Virus record (IMG/VR): IMGVR_UViG_3300033068_001067
Span: 2,312 to 66,311 of that record
DNA length: 64,000 nt
Strand: one strand, 5' to 3'
Origin: a virus
Taxonomy: Duplodnaviria; Caudoviricetes
Translations under genes and position numbers: made by a program
Notes under the pieces: model-generated
What the model was told of the DNA's origin: nothing
What the model saw: the letters and a program-made list of their open reading frames with translations, nothing else
Database searches by the model: none
Shown here: positions 4,524-57,236 of the stretch, piece after piece
Position numbering within the stretch: position 1 is the first letter of the stretch
Layout of the letters: each line of letters begins with the position of its first letter

Positions 4524-4724
4524 ATGACAGAAGATAAAGTAAAAATAGTTGTTGATGAAATTGCATCTTGTGTGCAAAAACTTCAAGAATTAAACAAAAA
4601 ATATCCTAATACTATTCAAATTCACATGGGTAGTGCAAAAATGGGAGACGCTTTTTTATTTAATATTGATTTACTTAGGTTAATTAAACAAGTAGAAGAT
4701 GACAACAGAACAACAAGCGGATAG
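4524..4724 (+). CDS. hypothetical protein
   Basis: ORF in packed block. Confidence 0.6.
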   Translation: MTEDKVKIVVDEIASCVQKLQELNKKYPNTIQIHMGSAKMGDAFLFNIDLLRLIKQVEDDNRTTSG

Positions 4725-4932
4725 GCTACTAGATGAAATACGTTCCATTATTAAACGTGGGGTGTATGCTTTTAACCCTAAGTCTATCCATGCCAACTAC
4801 GAAACCAATTATGAAAAAGCAGTAAGAGATATGGCTATTTGGTATTGCCAAAAAATGAAACACATAACAGAACCATTTGAAGGAGATTATTGGTATGATG
4901 TGGAAACTGTAATCATTGAAAAAACTAAATAA
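4699..4932 (+). CDS. hypothetical protein
   Basis: MTTEQQA...YWYDV small-protein type; overlaps the previous ORF. Confidence 0.6.
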   Translation: MTTEQQADRLLDEIRSIIKRGVYAFNPKSIHANYETNYEKAVRDMAIWYCQKMKHITEPFEGDYWYDVETVIIEKTK

Positions 4933-4934
4933 TT

Positions 4935-5135
4935 ATGAGTGTAGATGCTTTAATTGAACAAAACAACAAACAAGCTAGACTTTATATGCAAGCATATAGC
5001 AAGTCGTTAGTAATTGATTTTATAAAGTGGAATACAAAAAGAACCGATGCAGAAGCAGAAGAACTTTTTGACCTTTTTAAAAAACAAAGGATGGAAGAAA
5101 TGAATTTAGAACTTAATAAAATAACAAAAAAATGA
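4935..5135 (+). CDS. hypothetical protein
   Basis: ORF in packed block. Confidence 0.6.
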   Translation: MSVDALIEQNNKQARLYMQAYSKSLVIDFIKWNTKRTDAEAEELFDLFKKQRMEEMNLELNKITKK

Positions 5136-5335
5136 GAAAGCTATTTGTTTTACTCCTACTTACTTCCGCTTTTATTTCTTGTACTACTCAAAGAAAACCA
5201 ATATACACCATAGAAAAATTTGTAGTAGAGAAATGTGATAAAGGTTATCCCGTTCTTAAAAAACTAAAAGTAGAAAAGCACCCACAAGTAGGAGATACTA
5301 TTTACAGACTAAAAAGAGTTGAACCAAGTTTTTAA
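5132..5335 (+). CDS. small putative lipoprotein
   Basis: MRK + hydrophobic stretch + FIS-C lipobox-like cleavage site. Confidence 0.65.
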   Translation: MRKLFVLLLLTSAFISCTTQRKPIYTIEKFVVEKCDKGYPVLKKLKVEKHPQVGDTIYRLKRVEPSF

Positions 5336-5350
5336 CCAAAACCATAAACA

Positions 5351-5632
5351 ATGAAACTAGACAAACCAAACAACCAAACAGCAGAAGTGCTTTATGAGTT
5401 ACTCAAAGCAAAACGAAGATTATCATTTGGGGATATTTATAATGCCACACATGCCATAAATCTCGGACAAAGGCTTGCGCATCTAAGAAGAAACGGGTTG
5501 CTTGTGCCTTGTTTAAGAATGAAAACCAAAAACAAACACAATAGACCTGTAACATACGGTACATGGAGTATAGCAGGTGAAAAAGAAAAAGCCATTGAAG
5601 TTTATAACAAGATAAACAAGCCTAAGAAATGA
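5351..5632 (+). CDS. winged helix-turn-helix DNA-binding protein
   Basis: LGQRLAHLRRNG recognition-helix pattern followed by a beta wing. Confidence 0.6.
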   Translation: MKLDKPNNQTAEVLYELLKAKRRLSFGDIYNATHAINLGQRLAHLRRNGLLVPCLRMKTKNKHNRPVTYGTWSIAGEKEKAIEVYNKINKPKK

Positions 5633-48833: not shown

Positions 48834-49262
48834 ATGGATTTACTATTAAAAAGAACGACTAAGACAGATAAAAGTACTATTGGTGAATTGTACATCAACG
48901 GTACATTTGAGTGCTATATTTTAGAAGATGTTGATAGGGGTTTATCTTCATCAATGCCTTTGGCTGAACTTCAAAAAAAGAAAGTGTATGCCAAAACAGC
49001 AATCCCAACAGGTAAGTATGAAATAGTAATTAGTTTCTCAAATCGCTTCAAAAAACTATTACCATTAGTTGCTAACGTACCCGCTTACGAAGGCATAAGA
49101 ATACATGCAGGTAACACAGCAGAACATACAGAAGGCTGTTTATTGCCCGGCACAAGTAAAGCCGCAAACTTTGTTGGGAATAGCAGAACTGCCTTCAATA
49201 ACTTATTCAAGAAAATACAGACAGCAGTTAAAAAAGAAAAGGTGTTTATTGAGATAGTTTAA
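48834..49262 (+). CDS. putative endolysin, DUF5675 family
   Basis: STIGELYING...TAIPTGKY...GIRIHAGNT...TEGCLLPG. Confidence 0.8.
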   Translation: MDLLLKRTTKTDKSTIGELYINGTFECYILEDVDRGLSSSMPLAELQKKKVYAKTAIPTGKYEIVISFSNRFKKLLPLVANVPAYEGIRIHAGNTAEHTEGCLLPGTSKAANFVGNSRTAFNNLFKKIQTAVKKEKVFIEIV

Positions 49263-49794
49263 GCGATACCAATTCCAACTTGCTTCTATACTCAATCAAT
49301 AATTCTCGCAAATCCGATACAGATAGCTTATTTATGGAGTGTGCCATTTCATCAACATACTCTAATGCTTCGGGGTGTTCTTTTTTTAGTCTATCCCTAA
49401 ATATTTCGGGGTGGGTCTCATGTTTTGAATTACATTTTGGGCATTGCACCCTCACTCCACCTTCATAATATCTGCTACCCATATCAGCCCTACTCCCTAC
49501 ATGCCCACATTGAGATTGCTTCCAATTCATAACTTCATCACAGGTATAACAACTAACTTCCCCCCTATTATTAGCATACTTAATTCTGATGTATTTTGAA
49601 AAAACTGCATCCAATTCATCCCTTAAATTAGCCCAACTTTCATCTGAAAAATCTCGTTCCATTCTCTTATCCGAAACCCTTTTAATAGGCTTATACCCTT
49701 TACTTGCACACATCTTGCATCTTCCCTTAGAGAAAGCGAAATCGTAATGCCCACAAGCTAACTGACGCTTCTTAGGTTTTATTGTTGAGTTCAT
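49246..49794 (-). CDS. ninG: NinG/Rap-like recombination endonuclease
   Basis: LDAVFSKYIR...CYTC...QCGH...QCPKCN. Confidence 0.8.
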   Translation of the reverse strand: MNSTIKPKKRQLACGHYDFAFSKGRCKMCASKGYKPIKRVSDKRMERDFSDESWANLRDELDAVFSKYIRIKYANNRGEVSCYTCDEVMNWKQSQCGHVGSRADMGSRYYEGGVRVQCPKCNSKHETHPEIFRDRLKKEHPEALEYVDEMAHSINKLSVSDLRELLIEYRSKLELVSLKLSQ

Positions 49795-50621
49795 AAACGG
49801 ATTTGATTAAGTGGTGACGGAGTTCTGCTGATTAAATTATGTGAAATGTGGGTATAAATTCGGGTCGTATTTAAGTTTTGATGACCGCATAGCTTTTGAA
49901 TTATTGAAATATCAGTTCCTTGTTCTAAAAGATGTGTCATAGTACAATGCCTAATTAAATGGGTATATACTCTTTTATTGATTTTTGCTTTCTCCGCTAG
50001 TTGCTTAATAACTTGACCTACACTTCTTTCTGAATATTGTAATTCATCCTTCCACCCATTTAGTACATACACTTTACTTTTATACTCCTTCCAATAATCT
50101 TCAAGCAATCCGATAACGGAACTACTTAGCATGACTTGCCTATCTCTTTTCCCCTTAGCTTGAATTACATTAATAATCATCCTACTTCTATCAATGTGTT
50201 CCCACTTCAAATTAATCAATTCTGAAACTCGCAAGCCGCAAGAATAAAGCAACCCTAAAATTACTCGATGTTTTTTATTGTCGCAAACATCAAACATTCT
50301 TTGTATCTCCCCAACTGATAAAACTATGGGTAATTTGTTCTCTTTTCGAGCATATTGAATGTATTTAAACTTTTGCTTTTGATTCATGCAAATGTCATAG
50401 AACTTTTTAATTGCACTATGGTAATTCCTTTGAGTATTAACCGTTGAAAATTTACACAAGAAATCTTTAATATCTTGTTCATTGATATTCTTTGGGTGGT
50501 CTTTATCCACTTTTGAGAAAAATACATCAATACATGAAGCATAATTATCAATAGTATTTTGACAGTAATTTCTACGTTTCATTTCTTGAATGAATCTACC
50601 CTTATGTTTACATATATTCAT
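49791..50621 (-). CDS. tyrosine recombinase (SAM-like N-domain + catalytic domain) adjacent to the cassette array
   Basis: LPIVLS; GLRVSE (R); AKGKRDR (K); HLIRH (HxxR); CGH (H); IYTH (Y); C-terminal SPL; no IntI-type ALERKY insertion. Confidence 0.93.
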   Translation of the reverse strand: MNICKHKGRFIQEMKRRNYCQNTIDNYASCIDVFFSKVDKDHPKNINEQDIKDFLCKFSTVNTQRNYHSAIKKFYDICMNQKQKFKYIQYARKENKLPIVLSVGEIQRMFDVCDNKKHRVILGLLYSCGLRVSELINLKWEHIDRSRMIINVIQAKGKRDRQVMLSSSVIGLLEDYWKEYKSKVYVLNGWKDELQYSERSVGQVIKQLAEKAKINKRVYTHLIRHCTMTHLLEQGTDISIIQKLCGHQNLNTTRIYTHISHNLISRTPSPLNQIRL

Positions 50622-51243
50622 AGTTTATAAATTTTAGTTTTTTTGGTTGGTTCATAACTTCTTTATAAAAGCACTTCAACGCAACTATGTGGGCATTCCT
50701 CGTATTTTTGTTTTTTATTAGTCCTATGTAATGCCTAATTTCATTTTGATTAATTTCTTTTGGCGACTTTTTTTTACCTTCAAATTCAGAAATAAACCTT
50801 TTAATGTATGAAATAAAATTTCTTTTGCTATTCTTTGAGTAAGAACTTTTCTCAAGGCAAAAACGAAATTTTGCTATGTAAATAGAGTTTTTCTTTACTC
50901 TGTAATAATTATTACCCCCACCTCCTAAATTCCCATTTAGTAAATTACTTATGCCTAATTTACTTATCCATTCCTTTTCTTTAAAACTTGCTTGTTCGGT
51001 TGGTACAGTTTCTAATACTTCAATTATGGGGAGTAACCCAACTATTGCTAATTCACGTATCCATAAATTTTTCTTTGAGTTAGTGCTATTTCTTTTTGAT
51101 ATATGTAAATAAAGCCTTTGCTTTATTGGCAAATACGTCTTGCCTATATACCTTATTGATTTAGTCAACGGGCATGAAAGCGAATAAATATAGGTTGTAG
51201 TTATATTCTGAATTAAATTAACTAACCGTTCAGAAGTAGGCAT
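50608..51243 (-). CDS. GIY-YIG nuclease fused to an integrase N-terminal (SAM-like) domain
   Basis: YIYSL...IRYIGKT...R...E...N; C-terminal half aligns by eye with residues ~5-90 of the neighbouring recombinase. Confidence 0.8.
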   Translation of the reverse strand: MPTSERLVNLIQNITTTYIYSLSCPLTKSIRYIGKTYLPIKQRLYLHISKRNSTNSKKNLWIRELAIVGLLPIIEVLETVPTEQASFKEKEWISKLGISNLLNGNLGGGGNNYYRVKKNSIYIAKFRFCLEKSSYSKNSKRNFISYIKRFISEFEGKKKSPKEINQNEIRHYIGLIKNKNTRNAHIVALKCFYKEVMNQPKKLKFINYEYM

Positions 51244-51272
51244 AGTAAATTATTGGTTTTGAATTAATTAAA

Positions 51273-51301
51273 TAACGTGCGGGACATATTTTATGTTAAA
51301 T
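51273..51301 (+). other. candidate attI-like primary site (first GTT at 51295)
   Basis: Recombinase-proximal GTT with no attC hairpin before it; ACATA/TATGT mini-palindrome. Confidence 0.35.
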
Positions 51302-51340
51302 CGAAAGCCCTCCACAAAAGCCATCCCTTCGCTTTCGATT

Positions 51341-51434
51341 TAACGAGTAGGATTTTTTCCGTTTACGAAAGCCCTTCGGGCCTTCGTTTAACAATGGATT
51401 TTATCCATTGAAACGGAAAAAATCCTACTCGTTA
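51341..51434. repeat. attC-like site 0: perfect 24-bp inverted repeat with two internal hairpins
   Basis: TAACGAGTAGGATTTTTTCCGTTT / AAACGGAAAAAATCCTACTCGTTA. Confidence 0.8.
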
Positions 51435-51443
51435 CCTGCAAGG

Positions 51444-51686
51444 CTAACTGCATCGGTTAGCGACAGCCTTCCAACAATTACAATCACTACACATTTCATT
51501 TCTATTTTCAGTTTGACAAAATTTCAAATCCACAGTTAAGTAAATTAATTCCTTTGTCAATTCGTGGTATTTTTCGTAGGCTCTTTTGATTTCCATATTC
51601 TTAAAATCAACTAATGGAAAATCTGTTTTTAGTTTCTCAATTTTACTTTCTATCGTTTTAAGCCTTCTTTTTTTCTTTTGTAACAT
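51444..51686 (-). CDS. cassette 1 cargo: hypothetical protein
   Basis: Single ORF between GTT 51431 and AAC 51729. Confidence 0.65.
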   Translation of the reverse strand: MLQKKKRRLKTIESKIEKLKTDFPLVDFKNMEIKRAYEKYHELTKELIYLTVDLKFCQTENRNEMCSDCNCWKAVANRCS

Positions 51687-51724
51687 CGTTTTTAAATTAA
51701 GTTCCTACTGATAAACCGCCCAGC

Positions 51725-51817
51725 AGGTAACAGCGGTTTGGCAAAAGCCGCCATAAACATTCTGCAAACTTTAAACTTTTCGTTAGGCAGCCTTCGCCAA
51801 GCCGCAAAACGTTAGGT
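51725..51817 (+). repeat. attC-like site 1
   Basis: AAC-A-GCGGTTTGGC...GCCAAGCCGC-AAAAC-GTT. Confidence 0.88.
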
Positions 51818-51835
51818 GCAATGCCAGCGGACACC

Positions 51836-52549
51836 CTAAAACATTCGGAGTTGGCTGACAAAATCTTTAAAACGCTTTTCTTGTGCTTCATAATAATCTT
51901 TATCTATTTCAAATCCAGTAAAATCAAACCCACCTTTATTACAGGCAATTCTACTGCTACCACTTCCAACGTGAGTATCTAAAATCAAATCACCTTCTTT
52001 GGCATAATTTGATAATAACCAATCATACAATGCCACAGGCTTTTGAGTTGGGTGTATTCTTTGCTCTTTGTCTTTCATATTGTGTTGCAACATTCCGTGC
52101 CAAGTAATATTTACAAAGTCTATTTTTTGCAACCAACTCAACCAAGCAAGTTCGCCAGTGCTATAAGTTGGCATTGTTACGTTTTTATGCCAATAAAGCA
52201 TACCGCCAACTAATCCAAAGAAATTTGCACCCCACACTATTTGTTTTTTAGATACTCTTTTTAACTCATTAAAATAATCTTCGTTTGGCGTTTCGTTATC
52301 CCAATTTGTTTTTTTATAGGTATTAATTTTAGCCAAAGAAGTTTTTTCGTGCCTATCACTATTTTTGCCATTGTTTTTAATATCGGCATTTATGCCATAA
52401 GGCGGGTCAACTATTGCAAGGTCAAAGTAATTATCAGAAAAGCGTTTTAAACCCTCTACACAATCCTCATTATACACCACAGAAGGCACTGCACCTAACA
52501 CGGTATTGGCAAAATTGCCGTTCTGTTTTTCAATTAAACTTTCGTCCAT
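51836..52549 (-). CDS. cassette 2 cargo: orphan N4-C/N6-A DNA methyltransferase (beta class)
   Basis: DLAIVDPPYG motif IV; HPTQKP; LDTHVGSGSS motif I; start lies inside attC2. Confidence 0.92.
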   Translation of the reverse strand: MDESLIEKQNGNFANTVLGAVPSVVYNEDCVEGLKRFSDNYFDLAIVDPPYGINADIKNNGKNSDRHEKTSLAKINTYKKTNWDNETPNEDYFNELKRVSKKQIVWGANFFGLVGGMLYWHKNVTMPTYSTGELAWLSWLQKIDFVNITWHGMLQHNMKDKEQRIHPTQKPVALYDWLLSNYAKEGDLILDTHVGSGSSRIACNKGGFDFTGFEIDKDYYEAQEKRFKDFVSQLRMF

Positions 52550-52616
52550 AATTTCAACTTTTGTTTTTCAATTTAGCTTTCGGTTCGGCAATTTCGCCAA
52601 TACCCATACGTTGTGT
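52493..52616 (+). repeat. attC-like site 2
   Basis: AAC-AC-GGTATTGGCAAAATTGCCG...CGGCAATTTCGCCAATACC-CATAC-GTT. Confidence 0.88.
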
Positions 52617-52625
52617 GCAAGGCTT

Positions 52626-52859
52626 CTACTCGACAATCCCTAAACTGTCAATGTACTTCTTGGCATAATCGCAACACATTTTGACAGAGCCTTGTTTATC
52701 ATCTTTAAAATCATAGGCAACTTCATCTATTGCTTTATGAATTTCAGCGTGTAACTCACACATTGCTTTTAAGTTTTCAAGAATGTTATAATCTTTTGAA
52801 GCGTCACCTTTTGGACGAATATCGCCAATCAACTTTTTAACTACATCATAATTTGTCAT
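52626..52859 (-). CDS. cassette 3 cargo: hypothetical protein
   Basis: ORF within cassette; start set at MTNY. Confidence 0.65.
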   Translation of the reverse strand: MTNYDVVKKLIGDIRPKGDASKDYNILENLKAMCELHAEIHKAIDEVAYDFKDDKQGSVKMCCDYAKKYIDSLGIVE

Positions 52860-52882
52860 CTTTCTAATTTTGCCCGCCCTGC

Positions 52883-53014
52883 ACACAACAAAAGGTTTTG
52901 CGTTATGTGGGCGTAATGTTATAGGCTCATCATTTTATCTCAAATCAACACAGTATGTATGTGGGCAGACGAGCCTTGAATACCCACACAAACGCAAAGC
53001 CTTGAACGTTAGCG
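52883..53014 (+). repeat. attC-like site 3
   Basis: AAC-AA-AAGGTTTTGCGTT...AACGCAAAGCCTT-GAAC-GTT. Confidence 0.85.
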
Positions 53015-53248
53015 GTCAGTACTACCAGTATTCAAGTTCAACAGTCTTTGACCAAGTTTTTTATGGTTCTCCCATTCTTCATCTGACAAATTACTTAAAC
53101 AGTCAGGCTTTTCACCTTGTATGGTTTTTAGTATTGACAATTCAGTTTCATTGTTAAGCTCTTTTAACATTGAATGTGACTTATCTAAAACCATATCATT
53201 TAAGGTATTTAGATTGTCAAATGCGGAGTGATACTTTTTGTCTTGCAT
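53009..53248 (-). CDS. cassette 4 cargo: hypothetical protein
   Basis: ORF whose TAA stop overlaps the GTT box. Confidence 0.65.
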   Translation of the reverse strand: MQDKKYHSAFDNLNTLNDMVLDKSHSMLKELNNETELSILKTIQGEKPDCLSNLSDEEWENHKKLGQRLLNLNTGSTDR

Positions 53249-53297
53249 AATTGTATATTTTAATTTTAATGTTTCTATTTTTTTACTCGTGCCGAAC

Positions 53298-53409
53298 CGC
53301 TAACAAACGGTTTGGCAAAATACGGGGTGAAGTGCAGAGTCGAACGATTATAAAGCCAAGCATAAGTAACAGTCATTGCCCGTACTTCGCCAAGCCGCAA
53401 ACGTTGGCT
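53298..53409 (+). repeat. attC-like site 4
   Basis: AAC-AAA-CGGTTTGGCAAAATACGGG...CCCGTACTTCGCCAAGCCG-CAAAC-GTT. Confidence 0.88.
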
Positions 53410-53415
53410 GCAATA

Positions 53416-53637
53416 CTACAACTTTTCAATTTCGGCTTTGACTTCTATCCAAAAAGTTAAGCGTTGTTCCTCAAAAGGACTTGACGCATCGCAATCGTTT
53501 ATCAATTCATGAACTGTCATTAAAGCACATTGTTTTGACATTTCAAATCCTTCGCCTCTTAATCTTACATTTTCAAACGATATTATTTTATCGTTTATTT
53601 TTTTAAGTAATTCTACAGCTTTTGCTTGCGGTGACAT
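53416..53637 (-). CDS. cassette 5 cargo: hypothetical protein (MSPQAKAVEL...FWIEVKAEIEKL type)
   Basis: ORF within cassette; start set at MSPQ. Confidence 0.7.
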   Translation of the reverse strand: MSPQAKAVELLKKINDKIISFENVRLRGEGFEMSKQCALMTVHELINDCDASSPFEEQRLTFWIEVKAEIEKL

Positions 53638-53677
53638 ATTTTTTATTTTGACAGTTACTAATCTTTTACCGTACAGC

Positions 53678-53774
53678 AGCCAACAAAAGTATTGCTGCAA
53701 GTAGGGCTTGACCAGCATTGCTCAACAGTAGTTTTCCAAATTCCCTACCTGACAGCAATACTCGGTCGTTAGCT
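53678..53774 (+). repeat. attC-like site 5
   Basis: AAC-AAA-AGTATTGCTG...CAGCAATACT-CGGTC-GTT. Confidence 0.88.
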
Positions 53775-53960
53775 GCTACTATTACCAGCCTTTACAGTTT
53801 CGGAATTAACAAGTATAAGTGTTAAGTCTAACGATTCAATATATCTTGTTTTTACCTTGCCCCTTCTTATCCAGTTGCTTAAAACTTGCCTTGATATATT
53901 TTTCTGCTTAGTGTATTGCCACATGGTAGCCCATTTGTCAGTATCAATTTTAACTACCAT
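53769..53960 (-). CDS. cassette 6 cargo A: small HTH (excisionase-like) protein
   Basis: QYTKQKNISRQVLSNWIRRGKV HTH pattern; stop overlaps the GTT box. Confidence 0.6.
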   Translation of the reverse strand: MVVKIDTDKWATMWQYTKQKNISRQVLSNWIRRGKVKTRYIESLDLTLILVNSETVKAGNSSS

Positions 53961-54078
53961 TTTTTATGTTTTAGATTAAATATTTCATCTTGTGATTCAC
54001 GAATATTGCCCATAAGTTGAATTATCAGCCATAATAAAAAACAATTTACAATTAATGAAATAATAAGTATTGTAATCA

Positions 54079-54309
54079 TTATAAGTATTTTACAAGTTTT
54101 AATTCTCCGTTTATTTCTTTTACCCACTCATAACCATCAACATTTTCGTCTTTCCATGTTTTAGCGTTTACCATGAAGTATAAACCTTCTTCATTCTGAT
54201 TTTTCACAAGATTTATCACTTTACCACGCTGACCATGTAGTTTGTAAGCAACTGCACTATTTACTTCGTTTACTTTTTCTACTTTGTAATTGTTGATTTG
54301 CTGTGTCAT
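54079..54309 (-). CDS. cassette 6 cargo B: hypothetical protein
   Basis: ORF directly downstream of a promoter. Confidence 0.65.
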   Translation of the reverse strand: MTQQINNYKVEKVNEVNSAVAYKLHGQRGKVINLVKNQNEEGLYFMVNAKTWKDENVDGYEWVKEINGELKLVKYL

Positions 54310-54325
54310 AATTTGAATGTTTATG

Positions 54326-54356
54326 CAAATATAATATTGTTTACATTGCAAACAAA
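54326..54356 (-). promoter_or_regulatory. Bacteroidota-type promoter inside cassette 6 (TTTG-N19-TATATTTG)
   Basis: Minus-strand -33 box at 54353-54356 and -7 box at 54326-54333. Confidence 0.6.
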
Positions 54357-54389
54357 ATATTTTTAAACTTTTTTATTGCACATAGCAGC

Positions 54390-54485
54390 AGCTAACATCG
54401 TATTGGCAAAACAAGGGCTTGACAAATAAATCCAAGCACCAGTTTTTCAAATTCCCTTGCTTCGCCAATACGTCCAACGTTAGGT
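54390..54485 (+). repeat. attC-like site 6
   Basis: AAC-AT-CGTATTGGCAAAACAAGGG...CCCTTGCTTCGCCAATACG-TCCAAC-GTT. Confidence 0.88.
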
Positions 54486-54491
54486 GCAATG

Positions 54492-54740
54492 CTAAAGACC
54501 GTTAATCAATTTCATTATCGTTTGACGACCTTCTTCTTTAGCTTTTTTAATATCCTCAATAGTTTTGTCTTGAATATCAAAAACGTTTTTGTTTGCTACA
54601 TAACCATCACCTGCTTGTGGTAAATGGTCGTGGCATATCCATTTGAACTCTCTACACGTTTTTTCACGTTCATCGTAGTATTCGTCTAACTTAGTCAAAG
54701 CTAAATTCAGAATGTCTTTTTCTTTATTCGTAAGTTTCAT
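54492..54740 (-). CDS. cassette 7 cargo: hypothetical protein
   Basis: ORF within cassette; start set at MKLT. Confidence 0.65.
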   Translation of the reverse strand: MKLTNKEKDILNLALTKLDEYYDEREKTCREFKWICHDHLPQAGDGYVANKNVFDIQDKTIEDIKKAKEEGRQTIMKLINGL

Positions 54741-54767
54741 ATTTTTAAAATTAGGGAGAAGCACTGC

Positions 54768-54899
54768 ACCTAACAAGGTATTGCCAAAAGCAGGACATTC
54801 TCGGTTAATTAATCATTTGTACTTCTATGGGGCATTTGTGCAAGGTTTAGACTTTTTGCTTCTAAATCCCTGCCTTCGGCAATACCCGAACCGTTATGC
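54768..54899 (+). repeat. attC-like site 7
   Basis: AAC-AA-GGTATTGCCAAAAGCAGG...CCTGCCTTCGGCAATACC-CGAACC-GTT. Confidence 0.88.
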
Positions 54900-54911
54900 C
54901 TCATTGCTACC

Positions 54912-55232
54912 TTACTGCTCCGAAACAGGTTTTTTGCCAAGCATATTCATCACTATACTTGATTTGTTTGGATAGTTCTTAGCAAGGTGAAAAAAGAATT
55001 GGTCAATATTTACACCTTCTTCTATTCTACATTTTGAAAGCACATCATATAAATTAGTAGTTACATTTCTCCCATCAACATCGGGGTAAATACAAGTAGT
55101 GCAAAAATCAAAATCTGCATACTGAAATTCTGCAAACATTGGTATTTGTTCGGCTTTACATATCTCTATGATTTTTGCCATTAGTGGAGCAATTTGCTCA
55201 TCGTAAATCTGTTCTTTATTTTTCATTTTCAA
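54912..55232 (-). CDS. cassette 8 cargo: conserved phage hypothetical protein
   Basis: NKEQIYDEQIAPLMAKIIEICK...IPM start; fills the cassette. Confidence 0.7.
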   Translation of the reverse strand: MKMKNKEQIYDEQIAPLMAKIIEICKAEQIPMFAEFQYADFDFCTTCIYPDVDGRNVTTNLYDVLSKCRIEEGVNIDQFFFHLAKNYPNKSSIVMNMLGKKPVSEQ

Positions 55233-55264
55233 ATTAATTTAATCGTTAATAAACCGCAACGAAG

Positions 55265-55350
55265 GCATAACAGCGTATAAAGTAAACCGCCAATACCTAC
55301 CCACGAAGCCAACGCAATTGTCGGCTTCCCTTATACGCAAACCGTTAGGC
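55265..55350 (+). repeat. attC-like site 8
   Basis: AAC-A-GCGTATAA...TTATACGC-AAACC-GTT. Confidence 0.82.
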
Positions 55351-55356
55351 GATATG

Positions 55357-56046
55357 CTAAAACAACCGCACTTGCGAAACGAAATCATCGTATCTTTTGC
55401 ACGATTTATTAAAATATTCTTCGTCAATTTCACAACCAACAAAATTTAGTTTATACTTATTAGCAGAAATCCTTGAACTTCCAGAACCTAAATGTGTATC
55501 TAAAACCTTTGAGCCTTCTTCTAATTTTGAATAATCAAAACAAAAATCATATAATTCAATAGGTTTTTGGGTTGGGTGAAACCTTTTTAAATCAGTGCTT
55601 TGTTTTCGTATTATCTTACTTGGTTTGTCAAATGACGTCCATACTAATTCACAAGCAGAAAAAGTAGGCATAGATTGTACTTTGTCCCAGCAAATGAAAC
55701 CTCTTGTATTTGGTAAATATTCTAAAAAGTAATTAGCCCCAAAAATAATTTGGTCTTTTGAAACTCTAAATAATTCTAACCAATACTCTTCTTGCGGTAA
55801 AATATCCCACTTTGAACTATCTCTATAAAGTGTTGCAAAAGGACTGTTTTTATGTTTGCCACCTCTTTCAGTTAGTTTTTCGCCCAATCCATAAGGCGGG
55901 TCGCAAATTGCTAAATCAAAGTATTTATCGGGGTAATGTTTCATAAGTTGAATATTATCCATTAAATAAACCTCCGAAGAAGCACAATCGCCTAACACGT
56001 GTTTGGAGCAATGCGGGGATTTGTCTTTAATTTTATTATCAGTCAT
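55357..56046 (-). CDS. cassette 9 cargo: second orphan N4-C/N6-A DNA methyltransferase (beta class)
   Basis: DLAICDPPYG; HPTQKP; LDTHLGSGSS; start lies inside attC9. Confidence 0.92.
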   Translation of the reverse strand: MTDNKIKDKSPHCSKHVLGDCASSEVYLMDNIQLMKHYPDKYFDLAICDPPYGLGEKLTERGGKHKNSPFATLYRDSSKWDILPQEEYWLELFRVSKDQIIFGANYFLEYLPNTRGFICWDKVQSMPTFSACELVWTSFDKPSKIIRKQSTDLKRFHPTQKPIELYDFCFDYSKLEEGSKVLDTHLGSGSSRISANKYKLNFVGCEIDEEYFNKSCKRYDDFVSQVRLF

Positions 56047-56123
56047 TGTTTTTAAGTTTAGTTTTTAATTGAAAAATTGGTGCATTTTTAGCCCGCACTG
56101 CACCAAGCACGAGAACGTTGGCT
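55990..56123 (+). repeat. attC-like site 9
   Basis: AAC-A-CGTGTTTGGAGCAATGCGGG...CCCGCACTGCACCAAGCACG-AGAAC-GTT. Confidence 0.88.
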
Positions 56124-56124
56124 G

Positions 56125-56379
56125 CTATACTACAACCCCATTCATTTTAAGTTCCGCCCTTAAACGTATTAATTCACGATTGACTTTAAGCAGTTCTTGC
56201 TCATATTCATTACGCTGAATTTTGACACGTTTACACTCTTTTTTTATTTCTTCATTAACGCCATTGGAAAATTCAACCATTACTTCCATTACTTTTTTTT
56301 CGCCAAATTCACCATAAGCGGAAAATCCTTCTTCGTTGTAAAAAACACCCCATCTTTTTAAGAAATTTAATGCACTCAT
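56125..56379 (-). CDS. cassette 10 cargo: hypothetical coiled-coil protein
   Basis: ORF fills the cassette. Confidence 0.65.
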   Translation of the reverse strand: MSALNFLKRWGVFYNEEGFSAYGEFGEKKVMEVMVEFSNGVNEEIKKECKRVKIQRNEYEQELLKVNRELIRLRAELKMNGVVV

Positions 56380-56421
56380 ATTTTATATTTTGATATTTTA
56401 AAATTTATCTTACCGTACAGC

Positions 56422-56508
56422 AGCCAACAATGTGTTTTACGCAAGGGCGGACACAGTACGCAGGTTGAAATTGCTTTATTGCCCCTGCGTAAAGCACCAC
56501 CGTTAGCC
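56422..56508 (+). repeat. attC-like site 10
   Basis: AAC-AAT-GTGTTTTACGCAAGGGC...GCCCCTGCGTAAAGCAC-CACC-GTT. Confidence 0.88.
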
Positions 56509-56514
56509 GTAATG

Positions 56515-57138
56515 CTATGATACACCACGAGCAAAATCTATTGCCATTTGTTTTGCATCTTCAATAGTTTTAGCAACCCATTTTCCTTTACCCCATTTCG
56601 TAGGATATTCAGAAAATACACCACTTATTTGACCTCTCATTTTTTCGTTTGGAGTTTTATCATCATAAGTATAACGTACCCAAACCCCTAATTTACCATC
56701 TTGTTCACCTTCTTCGGCAACAGGATTTAATTTATGTGTTTCATCCATATCTGTATCACCCAAAAATCGCAAACAATCTTCTAAAAATTCTTCTTTGTTG
56801 GATGGCTCATAATGGCAATGCCCTTTCTTACATTCACTTCCTATACCAAAGCCAAATATTGCTCTATGAGACCAACCGTACCACTTTTGTTCTATCGGGT
56901 TAAACCCTATACAACTTGTTGTTGGTTCGCCATATCCATCTTGTATTTGTTCAGTAATACCTCTTTTAAATAAAAACTCTAAGTTTTTTTCTGAACCTAC
57001 TCTACCTAAATAAGAACCATCTACTTTTGAGTAGTATATTTTACCTGCATCATCAGGTATAGTTGAATCACCAATTATTGCAATTGAGTTTATAAACTGT
57101 TGCAATTTTTTAGACACTTGTTTTTTTGTTTTAAACAT
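56515..57138 (-). CDS. cassette 11 cargo: conserved phage hypothetical protein (207 aa)
   Basis: GFNPIEQKWYGWSHRAIFGFGIG...AKTIEDAKQMAIDFARGVS. Confidence 0.75.
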   Translation of the reverse strand: MFKTKKQVSKKLQQFINSIAIIGDSTIPDDAGKIYYSKVDGSYLGRVGSEKNLEFLFKRGITEQIQDGYGEPTTSCIGFNPIEQKWYGWSHRAIFGFGIGSECKKGHCHYEPSNKEEFLEDCLRFLGDTDMDETHKLNPVAEEGEQDGKLGVWVRYTYDDKTPNEKMRGQISGVFSEYPTKWGKGKWVAKTIEDAKQMAIDFARGVS

Positions 57139-57181
57139 ATACTTTGATTTTTAAATGATTTTGAATTTTATAAAGCACTAC

Positions 57182-57236
57182 GGCTAACAGCGGTTTGGCG
57201 ACATTAAAACGACCGCCAAGCCGCAAAACGTTGAGC
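57182..57236 (+). repeat. attC-like site 11 (terminal, shortest)
   Basis: Arms identical to site 1: TAACAGCGGTTTGGC / CGCCAAGCCGCAAAACGTT. Confidence 0.9.

Follow-up and report, generated by a model that had tools for sequence, protein, structure and literature searches.

Integrons are regarded as a bacterial invention dependent on one specialised integrase clade, and in VchIntIA an insert in the enzyme reads the extrahelical bases of the folded attC site. A precedent for a folded substrate exists among Xer enzymes: XerCD-dependent integration of the CTX phage uses a folded single-stranded attP. In T4-type phages, promoter-early stem-loop (PeSL) modules place stem-loops between the small early genes of a hyperplastic region in which genes are shuffled; the exchange is thought to be homologous, with no dedicated recombinase. 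Clusters of attC sites without an integrase (CALINs) have been described in 17 phage genomes, with methylase cassettes noted (Qi et al. 2023, PMC9892861). In that study, IntI1 recombined a site from a Polaribacter phage, P12002L, into attI1, on the bottom strand only; the site, detected by HattCI and Infernal, belongs to the methylase CALIN of that phage. The phages had two or three sites each, no phage-encoded recombinase and no attI, and the sites were treated as pieces of bacterial integrons. Clusters of attC in phages are thus partial prior art for the system analyzed here, which occupies part of a 64,000-nt stretch of DNA (the window) from a virus of the Caudoviricetes (positions 2,312 to 66,311 of IMG/VR record IMGVR_UViG_3300033068_001067). 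The window is nearly the whole of a 66,311-bp single-contig viral genome that codes for a large terminase, portal, tail fibre and primase-helicase. It holds an array of gene cassettes bounded by hairpin sites, an attI-like junction and a gene for a tyrosine recombinase. It is concluded with good confidence that these form an integron-like gene-cassette platform carried by a tailed phage.

The system lies at the end of a minus-strand gene block that runs from ~49.2 to ~63.6 kb. In the reading direction, 12 short units are followed by a 211-aa open reading frame (ORF), a 276-aa tyrosine recombinase and a NinG/Rap-like gene. The array spans 51.3-57.2 kb and is partitioned by 11 hairpin sites of one family (S2-S12) and an odd site (S1). 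All cassette ORFs are on the minus strand and are therefore read towards the recombinase. The sites, with spans counted from AAC to GTT, are given below with their scores under R1, a covariance model trained on 11 sites of the window and 2 of a relative.

51342-51433, minus strand: S1, branched perfect palindrome; fold -40 kcal/mol, z = -13; no R1 match
51729-51813, minus strand: S2, 85 nt; 76 bits
52497-52612, minus strand: S3, 116 nt; 89 bits; in-frame ATG in the loop
52887-53010, minus strand: S4, 124 nt; 87.7 bits
53302-53405, minus strand: S5, 104 nt; 74.4 bits
53682-53770, minus strand: S6, 89 nt; 66.9 bits
54394-54481, minus strand: S7, 88 nt; 91.1 bits
54772-54895, minus strand: S8, 124 nt; 96.3 bits
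55269-55346, minus strand: S9, 78 nt; 55.5 bits
55994-56119, minus strand: S10, 126 nt; 94.1 bits; ATG of the second methylase in the loop
56426-56504, minus strand: S11, 79 nt; 44.2 bits
57186-57232, minus strand: S12, 47 nt, distal end of the array; 43.9 bits

The original prediction for this DNA had placed a G at 12 positions, and each of them closes an AAC...GTT imperfect palindrome. Its description of 12 hairpin sites with conserved arms and variable loops is accurate for S2-S12 (47-126 nt). These have a common architecture, which on the gene-sense strand reads 5'-X6-AACG, a bulge of 3-5 nt, stem, variable loop, stem, TGTT-Y6-3', with the stem broken by a GAAG/TTTT-type segment. S1 differs, with a perfect 24-bp stem, two inner hairpins and no bulge. 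The sites have the features of the attC type, namely an imperfect palindrome, an R''/R' core (RYYYAAC...GTTRRRY), an L-box stem and a variable loop. The classical single-base bulges were not seen; instead, there are the 3-5 nt bulge after AACG and two near-invariant G.T pairs. R1 detected no further copies of the site in the 64-kb window. The sole matches in an Rfam scan of 51.0-57.5 kb were sub-threshold, spurious microRNA matches to S1, and Rfam holds no attC model.

Several results indicate that the sites are maintained as folded structures. Compensatory changes are present in 13 of the 19 pairs of the training set (RNAalifold). A further 78 sites, which came from loci retrieved by means of the recombinase and played no part in building R1, had 94.7% of cells paired, compared to 68.6% in shuffles and 34-46% in slid controls, and a covariation score of 0.589, compared to 0.129 in shuffles. 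Two G.T pairs occur on the gene-sense strand in 75 of these 78 sites, and the better fold is on the minus strand in 9 of 11 window sites. When G.T and A.C were treated alike, with orientation set solely by the side of the bulge, the count was 499 G.T to 214 A.C; by the same criterion the closing pair among 298 sites was G/T in 221 and A/C in 11. The excess of G.T over A.C indicates that one strand is under selection to fold. A looser strand-symmetric detector (at least 10 Watson-Crick pairs) gave 2736 matches; it was too loose and was replaced.

The ends of the units provide the clearest sign of cassette structure. The GTT and six nucleotides that follow one site are the reverse complement of the six nucleotides and AAC that precede the next, with exact 9-mers in all 11 successive pairs; for instance, GTTACCTGC, on the GTT side of S1, is matched by GCAGGTAAC ahead of S2. 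Within the window, the flanks of a single hairpin show no such complementarity to each other. The 11 units are thus bounded at G/TT (the slash marks the crossover) with complementary ends of their own, in agreement with the prediction. The prediction had also assigned one ORF to each unit and two to cassette 6, which needs amendment in that the S6-S7 unit contains two or three small ORFs. The cassette ORFs are as follows.

51444-51686, minus strand: 80-aa ORF
51836-52549, minus strand: N6/N4 DNA methyltransferase (Pfam PF01555, E = 3e-16)
52626-52886, minus strand: 86-aa ORF; sole match a weak, sub-threshold one to ArdA
53009-53248, minus strand: 79-aa ORF; TAA stop inside the TAAC core
53416-53718, minus strand: ORF matching phrog_21441; probable start an internal ATG near 53638
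53769-54312, minus strand: S6-S7 cassette with two or three small ORFs (63, 57 and 77 aa)
54492-54740, minus strand: 82-aa ORF
54912-55232, minus strand: ~105-aa ORF matching phrog_20111
55357-56046, minus strand: second N6/N4 DNA methyltransferase (Pfam PF01555, E = 5e-14)
56125-56379, minus strand: 84-aa ORF
56515-57138, minus strand: Tad6, inhibitor of type I Thoeris defence (Pfam PF25188, E = 9e-42)

The recombinase-proximal edge of the array resembles an attI site. Two features occupy this edge.

51277-51297, minus strand: attI-like junction, gene-sense AAC followed by ATAAAATATGT, a motif common to relatives
51295-51344, minus strand: gene-less 50-nt unit with 14-nt complementary ends, GTTAAATCGAAAGC ... 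GCTTTCGATTTAAC (inverted repeat I9)

The gene-less unit and S1 are together read as an empty first cassette. In ~20 relatives, the last unit ends with X6-AAC 50-54 nt (68 nt in one subgroup) before the ATG of the recombinase gene, and a conserved (A/T)WWNWATATGTA motif comes right after this AAC. In the window, the motif (AAC followed by ATAAAATATGT, plus-strand 51284-51297) is 51 nt before the ATG of the 211-aa ORF, not that of the recombinase. This arrangement recurs in locus L339 (recombinase 77% identical), where the motif precedes the ORF by 50 nt. Different cassettes abut the motif, and the recombinase gene is beside it, as with attI; this comparison of sequences suggests that cassettes are inserted at the attI-like motif. 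On the gene-sense strand, AAC followed by TATGAATATATGTAAAC is also present in the start region of the recombinase gene (50605-50630), and ATATGTAAAC recurs in the attI-like motif of L292, L311 and other relatives. This region may be a further junction or an ancestral one, or simply a conserved stretch of coding sequence (MNI...).

The genes between the junction and the end of the block are as follows.

50608-51243, minus strand: 211-aa ORF, GIY-YIG-like plus SAM-like core-binding domain (Pfam SAM_4, residues 126-200; motifs read from the translation)
49791-50621, minus strand: 276-aa tyrosine recombinase of the Xer/IntI group (Pfam Phage_integrase and SAM_4)
49246-49794, minus strand: NinG/Rap junction-specific endonuclease gene, overlapping the recombinase stop codon

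The recombinase is intact, as had been predicted. The full set of catalytic residues is present (R131, K156, H221-x-x-R224, H247 and Y256), and the catalytic R, K, HxxR, H and Y are invariant in six aligned relatives (alignment A3). Its placement facing the array was correct as to the locus, with the array upstream, and missed the 211-aa ORF (50608-51243) that lies in between. The best NCBIfam profile is XerA_Arch (200 bits, cut-off 220); XerD (170 bits, cut-off 330), XerC (159, cut-off 335) and all other Xer profiles are likewise below their curated cut-offs. The integron-integrase model TIGR02249 scores 166 bits with a cut-off of 265, in two stretches. Among solved structures, VchIntIA (2A3V) and XerA are the best matches, with equal scores. 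The alignment to VchIntIA jumps IntI4 residues 175-245, where the recombinase has 28 residues. The family is large, with more than 3000 clusters at E <= 1e-30; among the best 120 matches listed, nearly all are 275-277 aa and, where named, are called XerD.

The 211-aa ORF overlaps the start of the recombinase gene by 14 nt. Its N-terminal part has GIY-YIG-like motifs (YIY...YIGKT...R..H...N...IEVLE), and its C-terminal domain is a copy of the SAM-like (core-binding) domain of the integrase. A homologue is in the same position in L339 and L340 (L339 9373-10026). Judged from these sequence features, the ORF may be an accessory factor or an inserted homing-type nuclease. It was rejected as a general component, as it is present solely in the window and L339/L340 among the fetched loci. 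NinG/Rap was rejected as a conserved partner of the recombinase, as tblastn found it in 0 of 79 recombinase loci. The NinG/Rap family is also found 3' of the recombinase in L341 and just past the methylase cassettes of Polaribacter phage P12002L.

The sites are widespread among viruses and are linked to this type of recombinase. A search with a degenerate pattern for one arm of the hairpin retrieved 120 viral contigs, in which R1 found ~200 sites in arrays of up to 10. A unit's own ends match at 6/6 positions in 91 of 139 viral units, compared to 5 of 257 for the flanks of the same hairpin and ~1% for random pairs; the own-end rule also describes 72 of 112 units in loci fetched through the recombinase. 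Relatives of the recombinase are encoded in 139 viral contigs, 79 of which were fetched for a site scan. In these 79 loci, 164 sites are upstream of the recombinase gene on the same strand, versus 8 upstream on the opposite strand, 10 downstream on the same strand and 16 downstream on the opposite strand. At least one upstream same-strand site is present in 51 of the 62 loci whose upstream DNA was long enough. In 123 of 139 phage units, it is the folding strand of the site that carries the longer ORF. An S2-like site, 88% identical, is present in a 642-kb uncultured phage (LR756502.1; L125 15038-15134), with no other site within 30 kb. At the distal edge of the L341 array there are two IS605 OrfB/TnpB-like genes (1-581 and 4558-5607). 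Most recombinase-carrying contigs are 1-3 kb long, and arrays and recombinase genes are very often at contig ends (e.g. L013, L041, L071, L094, L262, L264 and L278). Metagenome assemblies thus appear to break in the arrays, which are probably under-counted.

Evidence for cassette movement comes from the comparison of two viral loci from different samples, L292 and L294. Their attI-like motif and recombinase are 98.75% identical over 1122 nt, and the backbone downstream of them shows 83-85% identity. Four cassettes are common to both loci at 97.7-100% identity, yet the order differs: A, E, D, B, x, C, attI in L292 and A ... B ... C, D, E, F, attI in L294. Cassette C adjoins the attI-like motif in L292 and another hairpin in L294. 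The common blocks start at the hairpin TAAC and end at AAC(G) after the downstream ORF, and the sequence outside them is unrelated. These limits indicate that the mobile unit is a hairpin plus its downstream ORF, with crossover in the conserved core. The L294 order could have arisen from that of L292 by excision of D and then E, re-insertion of each at attI and addition of a new cassette, F. Content and order of the array therefore vary between close relatives. More broadly, among pairs of loci with the same hairpin type, homology extends to the gene downstream in 74 and to the gene upstream in 16; for another hairpin cluster these counts are 12 and 1. Nucleotide clustering of 139 cassette cores from the pattern-fetched loci gave 4 related pairs, too few to show the hairpin partner.

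The cassettes of the window itself give similar indications. The first methylase cassette is 86% identical at the nucleotide level to one in L266, a locus with a recombinase gene just 68% identical to that of the window. In wastewater run X7, contigs are ~99% identical to the Tad6 cassette over 56501-57189 only, which is from the S11 G/TT to the S12 AAC, and the cassette neighbouring Tad6 is absent. At loose contig ends, similarity stops immediately after GTT (51814, 56119) or immediately before CTAAC (54770, 55992, 52488). In the source run, Logan contigs break at S2, S3, S8, S10 and S12, and bins with these hairpins have ~two to four times the depth of unique parts, indicating that other genomes of the source sample contain similar hairpins. 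High-depth unitigs of 105-114 nt from fish, river and wastewater metagenomes are 99% identical to S3. No cassette is common to the window and L339 or L341, whose recombinases are 76-77% identical to that of the window; identical array content in relatives, which was to count against a cassette system, was thus not seen.

Taken together, these results support the predicted integron logic, with folded AAC/GTT sites, complementary ends, an attI-like junction and cassettes reordered at the core. In the proposed mechanism, each site would form, on the gene-sense (minus) strand, a hairpin with a bulge, closed by AACG/TGTT. The tyrosine recombinase, a relative of Xer and IntI, would cut in the conserved AAC, which is G/TT on the other strand, and release the hairpin and its downstream ORF as a circle. 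The circle would then enter the array again, either at the attI-like junction next to the recombinase gene or at a different hairpin. The roles of the recombinase as catalyst, of folded single-stranded DNA as substrate and of circles as intermediate are inferred. On the plus strand, the order is a left-pointing recombinase, the GIY-YIG/core-binding ORF, the attI-like junction (...ACATATTTTAT-G/TT) and 12 cassettes, each of which starts with the TT that follows the G of one site and ends with the G of its own hairpin. Transcription of the cargo runs towards attI and the recombinase; each ORF thus has its hairpin on the 5' side, and the recombinase gene comes last in this direction. Such a platform would let phages trade counter-defence genes.

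Several observations weigh against this interpretation. According to the VchIntIA alignment, the recombinase lacks the IntI-specific insert of ~40 residues (I2 helix region); it is thus not an IntI, and does not belong to the integrase clade with the additional domain. At least four viral genomes rated complete (99-100%) carry arrays without any PF00589 gene, and a search of ten array-bearing viral records found no tyrosine recombinase in 8, four of them rated complete. The recombinase is therefore dispensable for keeping an array. Arrays in phages that lack it are probably serviced in trans. The 78-site alignment behind the pair counts was fitted to R1. The check for mobility proposed with the original prediction was borne out by the rearranged order in L292 and L294 and not by excision products: no excision joint or circle of the window phage was present among the assembled contigs of the source run and three other metagenomes, and the joints listed in these contigs are hairpins of other elements. 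Finally, in two cases (Tad6 in X7 and L041 versus L119), the cassette core is kept with neither flanking hairpin, which is unexpected if the hairpin always travels with the ORF; both strands or both sides may recombine.

Some of these observations could also be explained if the hairpins are portable patches of homology, within which co-infecting phages swap cassettes by general homologous recombination, as has been suggested for PeSL modules, with the recombinase serving, for example, lysogeny or dimer resolution. Hairpins that are 85-99% identical across unrelated contigs and metagenomes are consistent with this explanation, as are complete phage genomes that keep arrays without a tyrosine recombinase and the cassette cores found with neither neighbouring hairpin conserved. 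However, the breakpoints fall in the 4-5 nt TAAC(G) core and are not scattered within the hairpins. Exchange by homology also leaves unexplained the exact complementarity of the unit ends, and the recombinase-side cassette that ends at AAC against a non-hairpin motif at a fixed distance of ~52 nt. Moreover, sites are ~20-fold enriched upstream of the recombinase on one strand. Homologous exchange is therefore an unlikely account of the arrays, and site-specific recombination of cassettes is preferred.

The same family of sites is found in bacterial chromosomes. As had been proposed, the new covariance model was run on phage and Bacteroidota DNA, and arrays were found in both; in Bacteroidota genomes they were detected by R1 and the hairpin pattern. 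In a genome-wide pattern scan, most of the 120 bacterial matches are chance singles, and the real sites are in Bacteroidota contigs and a few otherwise-binned contigs. A 4.16-Mb Chitinophagaceae contig has 54 sites on one strand, from 265 to 52,169, beginning at the contig end (L336-L338, G011:C6:1-58000). The array ends ~420 nt from the 3' end of a gene for a 407-aa recombinase, and its last unit ends at GCCGATAAC, ~140 nt from this gene. The 407-aa enzyme is Xer/IntI-like, lacks the IntI insert and has a 125-residue N-terminal extension. Chitinophagaceae arrays (including L208, L210 and L141) have sites of ~135 and ~200 nt and adjoin the 3' end of a gene for a ~400-aa recombinase. The own-end rule is valid in these arrays, and R1 has matches in 32 of 61 sampled genomes of the family. 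The arrays point to the Chitinophagaceae as the likely host group; related freshwater Bacteroidota are also candidate hosts. In all 20 gene-bearing units of the chromosomal arrays, the ORF is opposite to the orientation of the site. Since ORFs have the opposite orientation in bacteria and phages, the G.T strand follows the geometry of site and recombinase and not the mRNA, indicating that the folding strand serves a function at the DNA level.

This chromosomal counterpart raises another explanation for the phage arrays, in which they are a passive or host-serviced cargo region. Chitinophagaceae-type host recombinases would recognise the sites, and the phage enzyme would be unneeded and may be inactive. 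The presence of the same site family in a 54-site, 52-kb chromosomal array beside a 407-aa Xer/IntI-like recombinase, the R1 matches in about half of the sampled family genomes and the many phage arrays without an enzyme are all in keeping with servicing by the host. An idle phage enzyme is difficult to reconcile with a large family of uniform length whose catalytic residues are invariant in the six aligned members, or with its tight coupling to the attI-like motif and the arrays. The opposite orientation of the cargo in phages and bacteria also indicates that phage cassettes were not simply lifted from host arrays. Exclusive servicing by the host is thus distinctly improbable. It is very improbable that the hairpins act at the level of RNA, as terminators, processing sites or translational leaders between early genes, with the cassette pattern incidental: the better-folding phage strand is the transcribed sense strand, with conserved G.U-type pairs, and two methylase ORFs start in hairpin loops, yet in bacteria, arrays of this family have their genes on the strand opposite to the one that folds, a promoter/terminator scan gave counts at or below shuffle expectation with no T-tracts, so that the hairpins are not classical terminators, and the complementary unit ends, attI-like junction and cassette re-ordering would be left unexplained.

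Under the preferred interpretation, a phage-borne cassette platform, the cargo provides an indication of function. The recognisable cargo is counter-defence. In the window it comprises two N6/N4 DNA methylases and Tad6, and the other 8 of the 11 gene-bearing cassettes have small ORFs of no known function. Among 100 cassette ORFs of other viral arrays, there are 18 N6/N4 methylases, 3 C5 methylases and one each of Dam, a TET-associated glycosyltransferase and Tad3. A hairpin type of ~118 nt (S3, 52497-52612, and S10, 55994-56119, in the window) occurs in 33 copies in viral loci, upstream of diverse methylase genes. Copies of this type are 85-99% identical across contigs, and the downstream methylases are just 26-55% identical to one another. 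The type has an in-frame ATG in the loop and a GTG that overlaps the crossover core (CC GTG/TTA GG), and therefore may supply a start codon and leader peptide. The stop codon of several cassette ORFs is the TAA of the conserved CTAAC core (53009-53011, 53769-53771), so these genes fill their cassettes to the last base.

We lean, with some reserve, towards a broader conclusion: that Bacteroidota phages operate an integron analogue of their own. A compact, Xer-like recombinase, devoid of the IntI domain that is deemed necessary to read folded sites, would capture and reshuffle hairpin-tagged cassettes at an attI-like site and stock counter-defence genes, a mirror image of bacterial defence-gene integrons. 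The site family, and possibly cassettes, would be held in common with very large, apparently undescribed arrays of Chitinophagaceae. Full-text literature searches found no paper on an array-linked phage recombinase, attI-like site, inverted cargo, counter-defence content or Chitinophagaceae arrays. The IntegronFinder 2.0 survey recorded a single complete integron in Bacteroidetes, in Salinibacter. Bacteroidota had been regarded as nearly integron-free, and the Chitinophagaceae counterpart suggests a version particular to this phylum. The presence of this cassette logic in a virus, in linkage with an enzyme that lacks the hallmark domain of IntI, makes it testable what minimum protein is needed to recombine folded DNA sites, and whether the integron mechanism arose more than once or from such Xer-like enzymes. 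The platform also offers a concrete explanation of how counter-defence genes turn over so quickly in phages, and the hairpin offers a sequence tag for mining unknown anti-defence genes.

Finally, the phage system can be compared with those already known. Like integrons, especially sedentary chromosomal integrons with homogeneous attC, it has imperfect-palindrome sites with a RYYYAAC / GTTRRRY-like core and variable loops (47-126 nt in the window), complementary cassette ends, crossover at a G/TT core and an insertion junction next to the recombinase. The classical layout is also kept in that the recombinase gene lies on the strand that folds, and cassette order differs between relatives. Unlike integrons, the phage system has a recombinase without the IntI-specific insert, and its folding strand would be marked by a 3-5 nt bulge and two G.T pairs instead of two or three single extrahelical bases. 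Phage ORFs are read towards attI with the hairpin 5' of the gene, the host of the system is a phage, and the recognisable cargo is counter-defence, whereas that of integrons is resistance or defence genes. The original prediction of a phage integron platform therefore stands for the architecture and not for an IntI enzyme or for cargo in the canonical orientation. The system is not an integron in the strict sense, as it lacks two of the features that define them: an IntI-clade integrase and ORFs that point away from attI.

The similarity to phage CALINs is close, as sites of the same architecture flank methylase genes in a Bacteroidota phage. By eye, the intergenic hairpins of P12002L have the same AACG-bulge-stem...TGTT form and complementary unit ends. 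R1 gave one marginal match on P12002L, indicating that the model is tuned to one sub-family. With 12 sites and no protein with the IntI insert, the window would be a CALIN by the rules of IntegronFinder, but this label misses the adjacent Xer-like recombinase. Unlike the described phage CALINs, the window has 12 cassettes, its own enzyme and a junction, and belongs to a family of more than 100 viral contigs. The recombinase resembles Xer enzymes (XerC/D, XerA, XerH) in that it is compact and Xer-sized, with XerA as its best profile. It differs from them in scoring below the curated cut-offs, and its sites are not dif-like and are in multi-site arrays that bound cassettes; the system is thus not a member of the Xer/dif type. 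PeSL modules are likewise short structured repeats between small genes of a phage, and are tied to gene shuffling. Unlike PeSL modules, the window system has breakpoints in a fixed core, complementary ends, and a linked recombinase and attI-like site, with no promoter or terminator enrichment.

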